Below are positions 2,923-10,383 of a DNA stretch of 64,000 bases, in pieces. Position numbers and translations under genes: made by a program. Below the pieces are notes generated by a model, which saw only the letters and a program-made list of their open reading frames with translations, ran no database searches and had not been told where the DNA came from. Source of the DNA: an uncultured Gammaproteobacteria bacterium (GTDB taxonomy: Bacteria; Patescibacteriota; Patescibacteriia; UBA1558; S5-K13); assembly GCA_964424195.1 (NCBI GenBank), contig CAYRHT010000001.1:207542-271541 (forward strand), read 5' to 3'. Each line of letters opens with the position of its first letter. The first letter of the stretch is position 1.

Positions 2923-3327
2923 TTAATTTGAAATCATTTTAATTCTTAAATTGTTGATTCTAGTTTTTAAACTATTATCTAAAATTCGGTCACCATATTT
3001 AATAATAGTGCCAGAAATTAAATCTTTACTTATTATTTTTTCTACTTCTAATTTTTCAGCTCCAGATAATTCTTTAATATGATCTTCTAAAGAACTAGAA
3101 GTTGCTTGATCAATCTCTAAGGCAGTAGTAATACTAGCTTTAACTATTTTATTTTCTTTATTCCAAATAGCATCAAATTCTTCCAGAACTTTATCAATTT
3201 TTGCTAAATCATTTTTCTTAGCTAATAAATCAATGAAATTTTTTAAAACTACATTAATTTCTTTTTCGCTTTTACCATTCACTGATTCGAATAAAGCTTG
3301 AGCGTATTTTTTATTAGTAAGTTTCAT
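2923..3327 (-). CDS. atpH: F0F1 ATP synthase delta subunit (OSCP)
   Basis: 134 aa between atpF and atpA; delta-like helical N-terminus; stop overlaps atpF region by ATGA. Confidence 0.75.
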   Translation of the reverse strand: MKLTNKKYAQALFESVNGKSEKEINVVLKNFIDLLAKKNDLAKIDKVLEEFDAIWNKENKIVKASITTALEIDQATSSSLEDHIKELSGAEKLEVEKIISKDLISGTIIKYGDRILDNSLKTRINNLRIKMISN

Positions 3328-3827
3328 TATTTATTGATTATATCTTTAATTATTTTTTCGTTCTTTTTAGGATCAATTCTTTTCCCTAATACTTTTTCTA
3401 AAGAGAGGATTACTAAGTCTGTTACTTCTTGTTTTACCTCTTTAACTGCTTGAGCTCTTTCTAAACCAATTTTTTCTTTTTCATTAGTAATAATATCTTT
3501 GATTTCTTCTTTAGCTTTAGTAATAATCATATTTCTTTTATCTTCACCAGCTTTAGTAGATGTTTCAATGATTTCTTTAGCTTCTTTTTTAGCTTTATTT
3601 AAAGTTTCTTCTAGAACCTTCTTTTTTTCTTCTTCTAACTCAATTAATCTTTTTTCAGCTTTTTCAGCATCAGTAATTCCTTTTTCAATTTTATCTTTTC
3701 GATCATCTAAAAACTTAAGCATTGGTTTGTAAGCAAACTTCCAGAGAATGAAAAGAAATATTGCAAAGTTAAAAAATTGAGCAATTAAGATTTTTAAGTT
3801 TAAGCCGAGGGCGTTAAATAATTCCAT
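3327..3827 (-). CDS. atpF: F0F1 ATP synthase subunit b
   Basis: 166 aa; single N-terminal TM helix followed by a long charged coiled coil; operon position. Confidence 0.8.
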   Translation of the reverse strand: MELFNALGLNLKILIAQFFNFAIFLFILWKFAYKPMLKFLDDRKDKIEKGITDAEKAEKRLIELEEEKKKVLEETLNKAKKEAKEIIETSTKAGEDKRNMIITKAKEEIKDIITNEKEKIGLERAQAVKEVKQEVTDLVILSLEKVLGKRIDPKKNEKIIKDIINK

Positions 3828-3894
3828 ATTTTTATAATTTTTAATTTAAGATCAAAGGTATTCTACTCTGAAGAGAGTAGAATGGACTCTGCCC

Positions 3895-4140
<246 letters not shown>

Positions 4141-4152
4141 TTATTAATTATA

Positions 4153-4971
4153 TTAAATTGTGGCTGCTTCGATCATTTTGTCTTCTTCAATCTCCGAAGC
4201 CATATTTATAAATATTAGAGTTAAAACTGCAAACACGAAAGGCTGAACAATAGCTGTTAATAATCCTAAGAATAGAAATGGTATGGGAACAATAAAAGGG
4301 GCTAGGAATAGAAATACAGCCGCTAATACTTCAGAGGCAAACATGTTTCCAAACAAACGAAATGATAATGAAATAATTTTAGCAACTTCTCCAACAATAT
4401 CCATGACTCCTAAGAATAAATCTAAAAATCCTTGAGCTAATAATCCAAATTCTAATTTTCCTTTAAAAGTTTGAACAAAGAAATCTTTTACTCCACTAAA
4501 GTTTAAAAATTTTCCAACATATTTAAAAGGACCGTGAATACTAATAGCTACAATTTGAGTTGTGATTACTGACACTAAAGTCATTACAAATACTAAACTA
4601 TAGTCAGCTACAATTGTTCGAAAAAGAGGAACTATGCCACCAGCTGTTTTAATAGTCACAGCAGCTTGCCCAGGAATGAAAGTAACTAAGTTAGCAGTAA
4701 AAGTTATTAAAAACATAGAAAATACTAAAGGAAAAACTCTTTTAGCTTTCTTTTCACTACTAACTACACTAACTACAAAATCAAAAGCTCCACCAATGAT
4801 AAGTTCAAAAAGACCTTGGCCTCGGCCAGGGACTTTCTTTAATGATTTAACCATTAAAACAAGAGTAATTACTACAACAGTATTTAAAATTATTCCCCAA
4901 AAAAATGCATTGCTTACTGCAAATGATCCAATGTAGAATAATATATGTGGTGCTAGGGAAACTCCGTCCAT
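4153..4971 (-). CDS. atpB: F0F1 ATP synthase subunit a
   Basis: 272-aa polytopic membrane protein with the conserved Arg-containing helix (FRLFGNMFASE); operon position. Confidence 0.85.
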   Translation of the reverse strand: MDGVSLAPHILFYIGSFAVSNAFFWGIILNTVVVITLVLMVKSLKKVPGRGQGLFELIIGGAFDFVVSVVSSEKKAKRVFPLVFSMFLITFTANLVTFIPGQAAVTIKTAGGIVPLFRTIVADYSLVFVMTLVSVITTQIVAISIHGPFKYVGKFLNFSGVKDFFVQTFKGKLEFGLLAQGFLDLFLGVMDIVGEVAKIISLSFRLFGNMFASEVLAAVFLFLAPFIVPIPFLFLGLLTAIVQPFVFAVLTLIFINMASEIEEDKMIEAATI

Positions 4972-4976
4972 AGTAT

Positions 4977-5303
4977 TTATGAGTTATTATCTTGATTAAT
5001 TATTTCTTGTTCTTCTTTCTTCTTCTTTTCTTTTTCTTGGCTGTATTCTTTTAATTCACTAGTTAGTTTTCGGATTCTTTTTAAAATTAAGATATTACTG
5101 AATACAAAAGCTACTACTAAACCACCAATTGTTAAATAGGGTTTAGTTCCTAAATAATTGTCTAATAATAGTCCACTACCAACAAATACTAGAATAGGTC
5201 CTAAAATAGAAGCCGCATTATAATATAGCATTCCAGTGGCAATATCTTTAATAGCTGTCGGTTTGAATAATTTTTCTTTCTGATTGTTTAATTTATTTTC
5301 CAT
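4977..5303 (-). CDS. AtpI/AtpZ-like small membrane protein upstream of atpB
   Basis: 108 aa with two TM helices, immediately upstream of atpB in the same orientation; lysine/glutamate-rich tail. Confidence 0.5.
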   Translation of the reverse strand: MENKLNNQKEKLFKPTAIKDIATGMLYYNAASILGPILVFVGSGLLLDNYLGTKPYLTIGGLVVAFVFSNILILKRIRKLTSELKEYSQEKEKKKKEEQEIINQDNNS

Positions 5304-5493
5304 AATCTTAATTATACTAGATATTTAGAATTTTAACTAAAATAGGCGTAAGATAGGAAAAATTATACAGCAATTTAACTTCAAAGTCAATAAAATTTTT
5401 ATGTCTATTTGTGGATAAACCTATTGATGATTTTAGAGAAAAGGAGTAAGTTTAAGAATAAGAATACAAAAATATGTAAAAAAGGAGGAAAAA

Positions 5494-5916
5494 ATGAAAA
5501 CATGTTTTTTATTTATTATTTTACTGTTTGTTCTCATTGCTTGTTCGGTTACTCAATCAGAACCAGAGGAATTATCTCCAAAAGAGTTGCCCTTATCAGT
5601 TATTGATTCGATTAATGATCAGATGATTACAGAATTTACTATTTTTAAAAAATGTTGGATAGAAGGTGATTCTTTAAGAATAGAATATACTTTAACTGAA
5701 AAAGATTCAGTGTCTATCAAGATTTATAATCCCAGTGGTGTATTAGTTGAAGTATTGGTTGATGAAAATGCTGTAGATATTGGTGATTATTCTGAAGCCT
5801 GTAATTTGAAGGCCCTAAAAGATCCGAAAGATTTGAAGACTCGTCCTGGATTTTATTTCTGCAAAATGAAAAATGGCAAAGTTCAGGAAGTTAAAAAAGT
5901 TTTATTAAAAAAATAA
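5494..5916 (+). CDS. Hypothetical lipoprotein
   Basis: Strong SD (AAGGAGG) before the ATG; signal peptide with lipobox-like LIAC|S; hairpin plus T-run terminator downstream (about 5938-5975). Confidence 0.55.
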   Translation: MKTCFLFIILLFVLIACSVTQSEPEELSPKELPLSVIDSINDQMITEFTIFKKCWIEGDSLRIEYTLTEKDSVSIKIYNPSGVLVEVLVDENAVDIGDYSEACNLKALKDPKDLKTRPGFYFCKMKNGKVQEVKKVLLKK

Positions 5917-6009: not shown

Positions 6010-9000
6010 ATGAGTAATGATTTAAAACTTAATAAAGAACAAAAAGAAGCTATTGAATATGGAGAGGGACCACTATTAATAGTAGCTGGTGCTGGAACTG
6101 GTAAAACTACGGTTTTAACTCAGCGAGTTTTTCATTTACTAGAAAAAAAGAAACTTGAACCGGATAATGTTTTAGCTCTAACTTTTACTGAAAAATCAGC
6201 TGGAGAAATGGAAGATCGTTTAGATCAGATTTTACCTTATGCTTATACTGACCTTTGGGTAATGACTTTTCATTCTTTTGGTCAAAAGATTCTAGAAGAC
6301 AATGGTCTGGACATTGGCTTACCAAGTAATTTTAAAGTTCTGGATCAAACTGGTTTATGGATTTTGATTAAGAAAAATTTAGATCGTTTTAATTTAGATT
6401 ATTATCAGCCCTTAAGTAATCCAACTAAATTTATAAAGGAGTTAATTAATCATTTTTCTCGTTGCAAAGATGAACTGATTCAAGCTCAAGATTATTTAGA
6501 TTATGCCGAGAAAGTGAAAATGAATCAGGATAAGAGAAATAACGAGGATGCCGAATGGGAAACCAAGCGTTTAGAAGAAATTGCTAATGCCTATCACACC
6601 TACCAACAAATTCTTCTAGAAAATGATGTTTTAGACTTTGGTGATTTAATTAATTATTGTTTAAAACTTTTCAAAGAACGACCAAATATTTTAAAGAAAT
6701 ATCAAGAACAATTTAAATACATTTTAGTAGATGAATTTCAAGATACTAATTATGCTCAATATGAATTAGTAAAATTATTGGCTTTACCTCAGAATAATAT
6801 TACAGTGGTTGGTGATGATGACCAATGTTTAGCTCCTAATGCAAAGGTTTTAATTCCAGATGGTCAGAAAGCTATTAAAGATTTTAAAGTAGGAGACGAA
6901 ATATTAACAGCAGTTGGTAAGGGACATGTGGGAGTTTCTAAAGTAAATCATGTATTTAAGAATAAGAAAAAGACAGAGTTTTTAACAATTAAGACAAAAA
7001 GAGGTTATCAATTAGAAGTGACAGATAATCATAAAATGTTTTGTCATGTTCCGTCGTCTAGAATCACTAATCAGTATGTATATGTTTATTTAATGTGGAG
7101 ACATGATATTGGCTGGAGAATCGGAATTACTAAGAATTTGTCTTGGCGTCTTTCTTTAGAAAGATCAGCTGACAAGATTTTAGGTATTAAAGCTTGTCAA
7201 TCTGAAGCAGAAGCTAGATTCTATGAACAACTTTATTCATTAAAGTACTCTATACCAACTTATTGTTTTAAACAAAGAAAAGGATTAAGTATTAATGAAG
7301 AGAGTTTAAAAAATTTATATCAAGAATTAGATGTTGATGCTGGAGTAGCGAGATTAACTAGTGATTTAAATATTGATTTAACTAGTTTTCATGTTTGTTT
7401 ATATGGAGTGATTAGAGGAAATAAAAAAAGAATTAAAATAAATTTGAATTTATGTCAGAGAAGATATAGAAGTAAATCGCATGTTAAGAATAAAAAAGAA
7501 TTAATGAGATCCTATACGATTTATCATGAGATTAATTTACAAACTTCAGATAAAGAAATTTTAAAAAAATTAGAAAATAATGGATATAGCCTACATCAGG
7601 CGAGAATAGGGAAAAGATTAAAAATCACTAATGCAAATTTATTAGATTTAAAGAAAGATTTAAAGAAAATTGAAAAGATAACTAATGGTATTGTTCAAGC
7701 TAGAGCTAAAATTGCTAAATTAAATTATCAAACTTTGCCAGCTTTAGTAATTCCAGCTAAGAATTTATTATTAGGACATTATCTTCCAGTAAAAGTTAAG
7801 AATGAGATTATTTATGATGAAATAGTAGAGATAAAATCAAAATTGAAAACATCAGTAGTATATGATTTAGAAGTAGATAGAACACATAATTTTTTGGCAG
7901 AAGGCGTTGTAGTTCATAATTCTATTTATGCTTTCCGAGGTTCATCTATGAATAATATTTTAGGTTTTAAAAGAGATTACAAAAAAACCAAAGAAATATT
8001 TTTAAATCAAAACTATCGTTCTGCTCAAAATATTTTAGATTTAAGTTATGATTTCATTCAACAAAATAATCCTCATCGTTTAGAAGTAAAATTGTCTGAA
8101 GGAAAGAATAAGCTTAGTAAAAAATTAAAATCTAATTCTAAAGAAGAAGGGGAGATTGCTGTTTTAAAAGCTCAATCAGAAAGCGATGAAGTTAAAGTAG
8201 TTATTGATCAAATTCATGATTTATTAAAAAAAGGATCTAATCTATCTTGGAGTGATTTCGCTATTCTAGTTCGTTCTAATTCTCAAGCTAAACCTTTCAC
8301 TATTGGGCTAGAAGAGGCTCAAATCCCTTATAATTTCGTAGCTTCCAATGGTCTTTATGAAAAAGAAATTATTATCGACATTATCGCCTATTTAAAATTA
8401 TTGGATAATTATCATGAATCATCTGCCGTTTGGAGAATTTTGAATCTCAGATTTTTAGATATTAATCCTCAAGACGCAGTTAATTTAAGTCATGCTGCTC
8501 GTAGAAAAACTGTCTCTTTATATACTGTTATTAAAAATAATCATTTTTATCTAAGTCTACCAGAGAAAACAACTAAAGCTTTGGATAAGATTGTTGCTTT
8601 AATTGAAAAACATAGTAAATTAGTTACTAAACAAAGTGTTTGGAAGATAATCTGGGCTTTTTTAATTGATAGTGGTTATTTAGCTTGGGTGGAGACTTTA
8701 GATGAAGCTCGGAAACAAGAAATTTTTTCTCATCTAAGTCAGTTTTACAAAAAAGTACAATTATTTGAAAAAGAAAGTGAAGCTCCGCGAGTAAAAGATT
8801 TTTTAGAATTTTTTAAACTAGAACTAGATTCTGGTGAAAAAGGTAAATTAGCTTCTAGTGTTGATGATGGTCCAGAATCAGTAAAAGTAATGACAGTTCA
8901 TGGTGCTAAAGGTTTAGAATTTAAATATGTCTTTATTGTTGGTTTGGTGGATAAGAGATTTCCAAGTATGGAAAGAAAAGAAAAAATTCAGATTCCTAAT

Positions 9001-10059
9001 GAATTAGTGAAAGAAACTTTAATTGATGGTAATGTTCATCTTCAAGAAGAACGAAGATTATTTTATGTAGCTATGACTAGAGCTAAACAAGGACTCTATT
9101 TTACTTGGGCTTTAGATTATGGTGGAGCTCGCTTGAAGAAACCTTCAATCTTTTTGAAGGAATTAGATTTGATTAAATTAGAAGAAGATTTAAGTAAAGA
9201 TGTGGAAATAGATTTTAATAAGCTAGGAGCTAGGGCTATTAAAGATGTTCGGCGGATTACCAAACAAGATTTACAGAAATTATTACCAAAACAGTTCTCT
9301 TTTAGTCAATTAGCAGCTCATAGTGCTTGTCCCCGACAATATTATTATGCCTATATTTTAAAGATTCCAATTTTAGGAAAACATGTTTTCTCTTATGGAA
9401 AATCAATGCATTTAGCATTACAAAAGTTCTTTGGTTTAATTAAAACTCGTTCTGAAATCAATCAAGGAGATCTATTCGAAGTTAAAACTAAGAAAACTAA
9501 GGATAAATTACCAGTTAGCTTGGAAGAGTTATTAAAAATCTATGAAGAATCTTGGATAGATGATTGGTATGAGAATAAGTCTGATAAGGATAAATATTTA
9601 AAGCAAGGTCGAGAGACTTTAAAAGATATATATAAATCAGTTGAAAAAGATCCTCCCCAAGTAAAGTATTTAGAAAAAGGTTTTAATGTTCGCTTTAAAA
9701 ACTATAGTTTTAAGGGTAATATTGATCGAGTAGATCAAATTAAGGGAGGAGTACAATTAGTTGATTACAAAACAGGTAATCCTAAAGAAAAATTAACCTT
9801 TGCTGACAAAGAGCAATTGTTAATTTATCAAATTGCCTATGAAGATGTCTTTCAAGAAAAAGTTCAGAATCTAAAGTTTCATTATTTGAATAATAATACG
9901 GAGATTGATTTCTTAGGTAAAGAAAAAGAGTTAATTAAAGTTAAAGAGAAATTAGTTGAAACCATTGATCAAATTAATTCTTGTAATTTCAAGGCTGACC
10001 CTTCAGAATTTAAATGTACTTATTGTGATTTCAAGGATATTTGTCCCTTTAAAGTTTAG
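6010..10059 (+). CDS. UvrD/PcrA-family helicase fused to a C-terminal PD-(D/E)XK (Cas4/AddB-like, 4Cys Fe-S) nuclease; contains an in-frame intein
   Basis: Walker A GAGTGKTT; motif II VDEFQDTN; motif III split as VVGDDDQ | intein | SIYAFRGS; motif IV QNYRS; motif V TVHGAKGLEF; motif VI VAMTRA. C-terminus has CPRQYYYAY ... VDYKTG ... CNF ... CTYCDFKDIC, a RecB/Cas4-type nuclease with Fe-S cysteines. Confidence 0.85.
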   Translation: MSNDLKLNKEQKEAIEYGEGPLLIVAGAGTGKTTVLTQRVFHLLEKKKLEPDNVLALTFTEKSAGEMEDRLDQILPYAYTDLWVMTFHSFGQKILEDNGLDIGLPSNFKVLDQTGLWILIKKNLDRFNLDYYQPLSNPTKFIKELINHFSRCKDELIQAQDYLDYAEKVKMNQDKRNNEDAEWETKRLEEIANAYHTYQQILLENDVLDFGDLINYCLKLFKERPNILKKYQEQFKYILVDEFQDTNYAQYELVKLLALPQNNITVVGDDDQCLAPNAKVLIPDGQKAIKDFKVGDEILTAVGKGHVGVSKVNHVFKNKKKTEFLTIKTKRGYQLEVTDNHKMFCHVPSSRITNQYVYVYLMWRHDIGWRIGITKNLSWRLSLERSADKILGIKACQSEAEARFYEQLYSLKYSIPTYCFKQRKGLSINEESLKNLYQELDVDAGVARLTSDLNIDLTSFHVCLYGVIRGNKKRIKINLNLCQRRYRSKSHVKNKKELMRSYTIYHEINLQTSDKEILKKLENNGYSLHQARIGKRLKITNANLLDLKKDLKKIEKITNGIVQARAKIAKLNYQTLPALVIPAKNLLLGHYLPVKVKNEIIYDEIVEIKSKLKTSVVYDLEVDRTHNFLAEGVVVHNSIYAFRGSSMNNILGFKRDYKKTKEIFLNQNYRSAQNILDLSYDFIQQNNPHRLEVKLSEGKNKLSKKLKSNSKEEGEIAVLKAQSESDEVKVVIDQIHDLLKKGSNLSWSDFAILVRSNSQAKPFTIGLEEAQIPYNFVASNGLYEKEIIIDIIAYLKLLDNYHESSAVWRILNLRFLDINPQDAVNLSHAARRKTVSLYTVIKNNHFYLSLPEKTTKALDKIVALIEKHSKLVTKQSVWKIIWAFLIDSGYLAWVETLDEARKQEIFSHLSQFYKKVQLFEKESEAPRVKDFLEFFKLELDSGEKGKLASSVDDGPESVKVMTVHGAKGLEFKYVFIVGLVDKRFPSMERKEKIQIPNELVKETLIDGNVHLQEERRLFYVAMTRAKQGLYFTWALDYGGARLKKPSIFLKELDLIKLEEDLSKDVEIDFNKLGARAIKDVRRITKQDLQKLLPKQFSFSQLAAHSACPRQYYYAYILKIPILGKHVFSYGKSMHLALQKFFGLIKTRSEINQGDLFEVKTKKTKDKLPVSLEELLKIYEESWIDDWYENKSDKDKYLKQGRETLKDIYKSVEKDPPQVKYLEKGFNVRFKNYSFKGNIDRVDQIKGGVQLVDYKTGNPKEKLTFADKEQLLIYQIAYEDVFQEKVQNLKFHYLNNNTEIDFLGKEKELIKVKEKLVETIDQINSCNFKADPSEFKCTYCDFKDICPFKV
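6826..7920 (+). other. Intein (365 aa) inserted in helicase motif III of the UvrD-like gene
   Basis: Begins with Cys (CLAPNAKVL, block A) immediately after the conserved DDDQ. Block B TDNHKMF. Ends VVVHN followed by the +1 Ser of SIYAFRG. Removing 6826-7920 restores the canonical VGDDDQSIYAFRG motif in frame. A central region of about 200 aa is likely a degenerate homing-endonuclease domain. Confidence 0.78.
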
Positions 10060-10086: not shown

Positions 10087-10383
10087 ATGTCATTTATAGA
10101 TTTAAACAATCTCTTACCTCAGAGTTTAACGAGGAATAGAATTAAGCCGCAAATAGAAGCGACTAATGTTTTAGTTGAGTGTCAGAAGTTGATTGAACAA
10201 GTTTGGGGAAAAGAAATTTCTAATTTAGTAGAACCTAAATATGTTAAAGAAAGAATATTGTATATGCACTGTAATTCTTCCACAGCAGCTAATGCTCTAA
10301 GTCTAGCTAAGAAGAAAATAGTAGAAGAGGTGAATAAATCTTGTGGAGAAGAATTAATTACAGATATTGTTTTTTGGCAATAG
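10087..10383 (+). CDS. DUF721 (DciA-like) domain protein
   Basis: 98 aa; the pattern ATNVLVECQKLIEQVWGKEIS...LYMHCNSSTAANAL resembles DUF721 proteins often found near gyrB/recF. Confidence 0.5.
   Translation: MSFIDLNNLLPQSLTRNRIKPQIEATNVLVECQKLIEQVWGKEISNLVEPKYVKERILYMHCNSSTAANALSLAKKKIVEEVNKSCGEELITDIVFWQ

Follow-up and report, generated by a model that had tools for sequence, protein, structure and literature searches.

The window analysed here, 64,000 nucleotides of contig CAYRHT010000001.1 from an uncultured bacterium assigned to the Patescibacteriota, contains a gene for a UvrD/PcrA-type helicase whose reading frame is interrupted, within one of the conserved helicase motifs, by 365 residues encoded at nucleotides 6826–7920. 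The locus raises two questions: whether this segment is an intein, and what the large region in the middle of it does. We show that the segment has the complete residue anatomy of a class 1 intein, and consider it highly probable that it is a mobile intein with an in-frame domain resembling a homing endonuclease, splitting motif III of the helicase.

The intein and its host helicase

The features of the host gene and of the splicing domain are as follows.

6010–10059, + strand: host gene (stop codon included) for a 1349-residue precursor, a UvrD/PcrA-type superfamily 1 (SF1) helicase with a C-terminal PD-(D/E)XK nuclease (open reading frame, Pfam, match to PcrA structure 1pjr)
6010–6825, + strand: N-extein, residues 1–272, ending with the first half of helicase motif III, VVGDDDQ (PcrA alignment, DNA junction)
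6826–7920, + strand: intein of 365 residues, class 1 (Cys1 ... His364-Asn365, then Ser+1; translation, intein models)
6826–7053, + strand: N-terminal part of the Hint splicing domain, intein residues 1–76, including block A with Cys1 (TIGR01445 at residues 1–72; modelled β-strands at residues 7–74)
7021–7041, + strand: block B, TDNHKMF (Thr66, His69), intein residues 66–72 (sequence)
7741–7920, + strand: C-terminal part of the Hint domain, intein residues 306–365, with block F (VVYDLEVDRTHNFLAEG) and block G (VVVHN) (TIGR01443, inteins in the PDB, model)
7921–10056, + strand: C-extein, residues 638–1349, opening with Ser+1 and the remainder of motif III, SIYAFRGS (PcrA alignment, DNA junction)
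9292–10047, + strand: host PD-(D/E)XK nuclease domain, Cas4/AddB-like, with cysteines clustered at the C-terminal end (Pfam PDDEXK_1)

Translation of nucleotides 6826–7920 gives exactly 365 residues, from CLAPNAKVL... to ...EGVVVHN, flanked in both protein and DNA by ...NNITVVGDDDQ upstream and SIYAFRGSS... downstream. The first intein residue is Cys273 of the precursor (TGT at 6826–6828), and the insertion is in frame between Gln272 and Ser638, in the middle of motif III, GDxxQ↓SIYxFRG (here and below the arrow marks the junction). All of the residues characteristic of a class 1 intein are present, namely Cys1, Thr66 and His69, His364-Asn365, and Ser+1, and within block B T66, N68, H69, K70 and F72 are nearly invariant (homolog alignment A1). 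The original prediction, made from the letters of the sequence, had named the same cysteine, the TDNHKMF block, the terminal His-Asn, the following serine and the length of 365 residues, and translation confirms each of these.

Curated intein models recognise the segment with scores far beyond chance: Intein_splicing (PF14890) gives 69.6 bits against a cut-off of 35.8 (E = 3.5e-19), Hint (PF01079) 34 bits against 29.7, and the NCBIfam models intein_Nterm (TIGR01445) and intein_Cterm (TIGR01443) 38–41 bits against 24.5 and 33 bits against 15.6, respectively. The C-terminal part of the domain is located by TIGR01443 at residues 345–365, by matches to inteins in the PDB at residues 316–365, and by modelled strands at residues 306–364. 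The predicted structure is a Hint fold. The family models and the fold had both been suggested as checks on the identification, and both come out in its favour. Splicing would thus proceed by the class 1 route through Cys1, Ser+1, and Asn365 with His364, as the conserved residues and the fold suggest. A scan of the window for further inteins or additional copies of the nuclease domain found none.

The host protein has the domains UvrD-helicase at precursor residues 7–273 (PF00580, E = 7.8e-72), UvrD_C at residues 663–1034 (PF13361, E = 1e-59) and PDDEXK_1 at residues 1095–1346 (E = 1.4e-30; the NCBIfam model TIGR00372, cas4, is below threshold), the last of these being the nuclease part that had been claimed for it. 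The structures of PcrA, UvrD and Rep match the spliced product at E values from 1e-95 to 1e-74, and the protein has the features of the UvrD/PcrA/Rep group of SF1 helicases, including motif III, GDxxQSIYxFRG. Its scores against the equivalog models of NCBIfam are below their cut-offs, and we therefore describe it as a UvrD-family helicase-nuclease rather than as an orthologous PcrA or UvrD.

From established knowledge of PcrA and UvrD, we take the split site to be motif III of the SF1 helicases. The glutamine of this motif touches the γ-phosphate of ATP, and the aromatic and arginine residues that follow touch single-stranded DNA; because the motif is split, the unspliced precursor should be inactive. 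Removal of the 365 residues encoded by 6826–7920 leaves a 984-residue protein whose alignment to PcrA 1pjr (E = 1.4e-95; VGDDDQSIYAFRG compared with VGDADQSIYRWRG), and likewise to the structures of UvrD and Rep, runs through the junction with no gap. At the level of sequence, ligation of the exteins therefore gives a helicase-nuclease with an intact motif III, as the original prediction expected.

Empty sites, distribution and known relatives

The spliced extein was used as a query to obtain a set of 120 best orthologs, the named members of which are all from Patescibacteria. The length of an intein-bearing protein (approximately 1350 residues) is found in only six of them; the remaining 114 are intein-free, and these include all of the nine closest orthologs (79–68% identity). 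The possibility, raised with the original prediction, that homologous helicases carry the segment as a conserved structural domain does not fit these 114 absences, nor the presence of Ser+1 and His-Asn at the junction. The closest ortholog, P0163 (79% identity), has an uninterrupted NNITVVGDDDQSIYAFRGSSMNNIL. Its neighbourhood is the same as that in the window (ATP synthase genes, a small open reading frame, the helicase, DciA, and an MgsA-type ATPase), the DNA flanking the site is 82–84% identical to that of the window, and the empty allele reads GGAGATGATGATCAA↓TCAATCTATGC at the insertion point. When the window is compared with a second protein, P0172, the inteins are 80% identical and the exteins 69.7% identical. 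Together with the family models, the Hint fold and the continuity of the exteins, the empty syntenic site and the sporadic presence uphold the original identification of an intein that divides motif III between Gln and Ser. The pattern of presence and absence is as expected for a mobile intein, and loss can contribute to it.

Queried with the intein, a word-indexed search for homologs found no more than 13 matches, all fragmentary, and missed the full-length, 80% identical intein of P0172; the number of matches therefore understates the size of the family and is no measure of rarity. A search with a profile of the central domain, covering 1.84 billion proteins, found at least 622 cluster representatives from metagenomes at E ≤ 1e-3 and 300 at E ≤ 1e-10. 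The best 150 proteins contain 152 instances of the domain, which lies downstream of GDxxQ↓C in 120 instances and upstream of HN↓(S/C/T)(I/L/V)(Y/F) in 110, that is, at the motif III site, in proteins of 850–1380 residues. By a narrow peptide pattern alone, close relatives occur in 64 species-representative genomes, all of them uncultured and drawn from many phyla: they include many classes of Patescibacteria, together with Omnitrophota, Rokubacteria, Aerophobetes, Saganbacteria, Margulisiibacteriota, Planctomycetales and Clostridia, and the nearest is a Komeilibacteria assembly. The hosts thus range from AT-rich Patescibacteria to Rokubacteria, at about 70% guanine plus cytosine (GC) by bin names.

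Two groups of unusual proteins were seen among the relatives. Four giant UvrD-like helicases of 1872–2536 residues (P0095, P0099, P0123, P0147) match the nuclease domain in two or three stretches; two of them (P0095 and P0123) have two inteins each, one in motif III (GDDKQ↓C...HN↓SIYEFRG) and one in motif II (DEAQDLNK↓C...SHN↓CQH), so that the endonuclease family has colonised a second site in one host protein. Five proteins of 350–380 residues (P0061, P0071, P0076, P0090, P0105) consist of the Hint and nuclease domains alone. They begin with Met and have no Cys1, and most are also without the terminal His-Asn (P0071 ends in ...VVVSN); they may have arisen as free-standing derivatives unable to splice, or from fractured genes.

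The same insertion site is already annotated as an intein in gp34.33 of Bacillus phage SPO1 (a putative UvrD-type helicase, FJ230960), with the junctions LVGDDDQ↓C...THN↓SMYSFRG. The SPO1 intein is also of class 1 and shares the first lobe of the central domain and the helical linker that follows it with the window intein (hhalign probability 98.5%, E = 3.8e-15, profile positions 12–125), but it is shorter (275 residues as against 365), lacks the second α/β lobe and has low sequence identity; moreover, its host is a phage helicase without the fused PD-(D/E)XK nuclease. A homolog is found in phage CampHawk, for which an intein in the UvrD helicase has been reported at Cys292–Asn576 (PMC3868849). 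A further relative is that of phi92 gp198, where the junctions at the same insertion site read VGDEFQ↓C...SHN↓CIYQFRG; the central domain, again of two lobes, is the same (hhalign probability 99.8%, E = 5.8e-28, 192 columns), and the differences are a Cys rather than Ser at +1 and an identity of about 31%. The phi92 protein (L002 2493–5267) is annotated as a helicase with "2 discontinuous domains". Its scores against the Pfam intein models, 32.3 against a cut-off of 35.8 and 28.0 against 29.7, are just too low, and as a result most records for phi92-like phages read only "DNA helicase".

The BASEL coliphage JohannJBalmer has the intein at the same site in bas62_0080, annotated as an "intein-containing UvrD/Rep family helicase precursor"; a 2024 paper states that none had been reported in coliphages (PMC11162368). 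Altogether the central domain was found in 39 phage records, phi92 gp198 and 38 others. The carriers are phi92-like phages, Phapecoctavirus, phages of Klebsiella, Serratia and Salmonella, and some records labelled Campylobacter; in these the intein is in a UvrD-like helicase, and most of the records call the protein simply "DNA helicase" or "hypothetical protein".

The window intein has the same insertion point as that of SPO1 gp34.33 and is homologous to it, and is a further member of this known motif III allele, which, given its occurrence in SPO1, in other phages and in metagenomes, is neither new nor rare. UvrD is moreover a tabulated intein host: Novikova et al. (2016) give 16 UvrD inteins, from Acidobacteria, Actinobacteria, Deinococcus-Thermus, Firmicutes and Proteobacteria (PMC4760082). 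These share the host protein family with the window intein, a comparison that holds at the level of the host family only, and a host of the Patescibacteria type is outside that list. The original prediction had held insertion into UvrD motif III to be much rarer than insertion at the DnaB, RecA and GyrB sites, which, in view of the 16 tabulated inteins, the SPO1 and JohannJBalmer examples and the metagenome clusters, was overstated.

The central domain

Intein residues 76–305 (nucleotides 7051–7740), which separate block B from the C-terminal strands of the Hint domain, contain three parts.

7078–7269, + strand: GIY-YIG-like nuclease lobe, intein residues 85–148, β-β-α-β-α (invariant residues, model)
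7297–7368, + strand: two-helix linker between the lobes, intein residues 158–181 (helices 158–167 and 170–180; central-domain model 83–106; common to the SPO1 intein)
7408–7707, + strand: second α/β lobe, intein residues 195–294, putatively for DNA recognition (confident model; present in phi92 gp198 and absent from the SPO1 intein)

The central 243 residues have no match in Pfam or PHROGs, residues 76–305 have none in NCBIfam either, and the domain is unclassified in all three. Between blocks B and F, neither a LAGLIDADG nor an HNH motif or fold was found by Pfam, NCBIfam, PHROGs or structure search, in agreement with the original prediction, which had seen no such signature. LAGLIDADG and HNH endonucleases were accordingly rejected, since the domain matches neither in family or in fold; inteins of the LAGLIDADG type match via their Hint part alone. 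Apart from the host frame, no open reading frame of 30 or more residues in any other frame or on the other strand overlaps 6826–7920. Any nuclease of this intein must therefore be in frame, and the out-of-frame or antisense type of intein endonuclease (Gosselin et al. 2025 preprint) was also rejected.

We aligned 37 diverse members of the domain, which are 24–49% identical to the window copy (intein numbering is alignment numbering plus 75). Eight positions are invariant (Tyr88, Met90, Arg98, Gly100, Arg108, Ala130, Glu134 and Pro144) and a further three nearly so (Glu112, Tyr141 and Phe148). Modelled on its own with this alignment, the domain has a predicted local distance difference test score (pLDDT) of 90.1 and a predicted template modelling score (pTM) of 0.81, and consists of the β-β-α-β-α first lobe, the two-helix linker and the second α/β lobe. 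The suggestion that an endonuclease here might be degenerate does not stand: the domain is strongly conserved, folds with confidence and has two lobes, the first of which is GIY-YIG-like in the model.

A Foldseek search of viral models with the central domain gave three strong matches, all to phage proteins of 780–920 residues. Among the weaker named viral matches, many are GIY-YIG, Seg-like, intron-associated, T5orf172 or BRO proteins, and a fair share are unnamed or unrelated. One match (Foldseek E = 7e-6) is to BFVD entry A0A8S5TZY8, a 782-residue protein of a Myoviridae phage annotated as "Adenine specific DNA methyltransferase", which is either another host protein for the intein or a misannotation. 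For the second lobe there was no convincing structural or sequence match in Pfam, PHROGs, the PDB or the fold search; it would probably serve to recognise DNA. The profile of the central domain matched sequences in the PDB at chance level only.

The only family to recur among sequence matches is GIY-YIG (PF01541), with weak matches in 5 of the 37 members; the best reaches 18.5 bits against a cut-off of 22.6, over profile positions 2–69 of 78. The GIY-YIG superfamily is defined by a GIY box, a YIG box, a central Arg and a later Glu (PMC1564403), and the first lobe can be compared with each of these. The position of the GIY box is occupied by Tyr88 (YVYLM), in strand 1 and invariant in the 37 members. 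That of the YIG box reads (W/Y/F)-R-I/V-G, with Gly100 invariant and the invariant Arg98 standing where Tyr is expected. An invariant Arg108 is found in helix 1, eight residues past the Gly, as in I-TevI (G19 to R27) and UvrC (G31 to R39), and an invariant Glu134 in the helix after strand 3, whose equivalence to I-TevI E75 and UvrC E76 is by topology only. The modelled fold, a three-stranded sheet with flanking helices, is that of the GIY-YIG enzymes. The Asn motif (motif E) is dispensable, being missing also from the Slx1 family (PMC1564403), and is therefore not a defining feature of the whole superfamily. From model and alignment we read the first lobe as a divergent nuclease core of GIY-YIG-like type, with an invariant Arg in place of the second Tyr. 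We write GIY-YIG-like, and do not file the domain as a proven member, because the curated sequence threshold is not reached.

The lobe shares its β-β-α-β-α core with I-TevI, the Seg proteins, Slx1 and UvrC. Also common to them are a Tyr in strand 1 and x-I-G in strand 2, a helix 1 that opens with an Arg, a Glu in the helix after it, and the spacings from Tyr to Gly and from Gly to Arg. The lobe differs from these enzymes in its setting, since they are free-standing, in group I introns or in repair proteins, and not in frame inside a Hint domain; and the second lobe is not a NUMOD, zinc-finger or helix-turn-helix module, unlike their DNA-binding parts. The "fractured genes" of Dassa et al. (2009) likewise bring together, in a gene for replication or repair, an intein and a nuclease of GIY-YIG type, but there the intein is split and a free-standing GIY-YIG or Vsr-like endonuclease frame lies between the halves, whereas here there is one polypeptide (PMC2677866). 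PI-SceI, PI-PfuI and Mtu RecA, inteins of the LAGLIDADG/HNH kind, share the Hint fold, the splicing residues and the homing logic with the window intein; unlike in these, the endonuclease domain here follows directly after the block B strand and has no LAGLIDADG or HNH motif or fold. An "SF1 helicase" fusion listed in a GIY-YIG survey was considered and rejected, as it is the Tetrahymena Tlr8p element and not this intein.

Proposed homing, alternatives and significance

On the basis of these results, we propose the following course of events. The gene would be translated into a 1349-residue precursor, presumably inactive as a helicase. The Hint domain would then splice, through a thioester at Cys1, attack by Ser+1 and cyclisation of Asn365 helped by His364, releasing the 984-residue helicase with motif III intact and a free intein of 365 residues. 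The central domain would act as a homing endonuclease, in which the GIY-YIG-like lobe (Tyr88, Arg98, Arg108, Glu134) cuts and the second lobe probably reads the DNA. Intein-free alleles would be cut near ...GGTGATGATGAYCAA↓TCNATYTATGC..., and the intein copied in by recombinational repair; it may still be mobile. Cutting and homing are suggested by a fold like that of a nuclease, by invariant residues, by empty sites and by a sporadic distribution across phyla.

Several points weigh against this proposal. The window copy has no match to PF01541, so that membership of GIY-YIG is not established by sequence. When the family profile was compared by hhalign with the catalytic domains of I-TevI and UvrC (sequences verified against the PDB), the probabilities were 0.2% and 2%, which are not significant; in these non-significant registers, Tyr88, Arg98, Gly100 and Arg108 stand opposite UvrC Y19, Y29, G31 and R39, and Gly100 and Arg108 opposite I-TevI G19 and R27. 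The second Tyr of GIY-YIG is an invariant Arg here, and no Asn is conserved after Glu134 in the 37 members. The GC content of the intein is 27.3% and that of the extein 29.3% (the source contig is about 30% GC), so there is no compositional sign of a recent arrival, and repeated loss can also yield sporadic presence. Finally, the whole case is computational, and the candidate active site is assigned from topology and sequence.

In a first alternative, which is the originally suggested degenerate endonuclease, the intein splices while the domain at its centre is inactive, either as a relic or as a purely structural scaffold, with vertical inheritance and sporadic loss: this would fit the lack of a match to curated nuclease families, the missing Tyr and Asn, and the similar composition of intein and extein. 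We nevertheless consider it unlikely. Relics usually suffer deletions and loss of motifs, whereas here the candidate catalytic residues are invariant among members that share only 24–49% identity, and both lobes are modelled with high confidence; the inteins of the window and P0172 resemble each other more than their exteins do, while closer orthologs have no intein; and the domain is spread over many phyla and phages.

A domain that is functional but does not home, such as a co-opted DNA-binding or regulatory module (for example, one coupling splicing to DNA damage or substrate) or a host nickase, seems to us less probable still. A module that benefits the host would be expected in most close orthologs, yet 114 of the 120 lack it, and recurrence at one precise site across unrelated phyla and phages is typical of a selfish element. 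That the 365 residues are a lineage-specific insertion domain retained in the mature helicase, for which nothing speaks except that splicing is deduced rather than directly observed, is scarcely credible, since every splicing residue is present, curated intein models pass their cut-offs and the fold is Hint, the segment splits a catalytic motif whose halves must be contiguous, and the closest orthologs lack it. We therefore retain the reading of a mobile intein with an in-frame endonuclease-like domain.

The surroundings of the helicase gene may be described briefly. Immediately upstream lies a 140-residue open reading frame (5494–5916, + strand) with a hydrophobic N-terminus and a Cys (MKTCFLFIILLFVLIACS...) and no recorded Pfam family; its product is possibly a lipoprotein, and the P0163 locus has a similar small open reading frame at the same position. 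The GC skew changes sign between 4 and 6 kb, from about −0.18 to +0.2, and gene orientation diverges there as well. The intergenic region 5304–5493, between neighbours at 2923–5303 (− strand) and from 5494 onward (+ strand), contains TTATCCACA at 5410–5418, the one perfect DnaA box of the window. This region may be a replication origin, one box being weak evidence. A DciA gene is at 10087–10383.

Inteins in UvrD-type helicases have already been catalogued, so the intein as first flagged is fairly ordinary. The endonuclease domain of the family is less so: it is large, with its hundreds of clusters, and conserved, yet missing from Pfam, NCBIfam and PHROGs, and a search of open-access papers and bioRxiv found no published classification of it. 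A 2025 preprint on non-canonical intein endonucleases lists HNH, Vsr-like, antisense LAGLIDADG and EndoVII-like enzymes and has only a passing mention of GIY-YIG. It is quite possible, and we propose it tentatively, that the central domain belongs to a hitherto undescribed class of homing endonucleases encoded in frame within inteins, with a divergent GIY-YIG lobe (Tyr/Arg-Ile-Gly/Arg/Glu) and a new DNA-recognition lobe, specialised for SF1 motif III with offshoots in motif II, present in hundreds of bacterial lineages and overlooked in cultured phages (SPO1, phi92-like). If true, this would overturn what two papers state, namely that inteins have no known GIY-YIG enzymes (PMC1564403, PMC2677866).

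The unannotated relatives in well-studied coliphages, for which curated intein models fall just under threshold, constitute a practical gap in annotation. If the domain is confirmed to be of GIY-YIG type, it would add a nuclease class to those found inside inteins, and would provide a compact, probably monomeric, site-specific nuclease scaffold directed against a universally conserved helicase motif. The cultured phages that carry it, SPO1 and those like phi92, would make its biochemistry directly testable.

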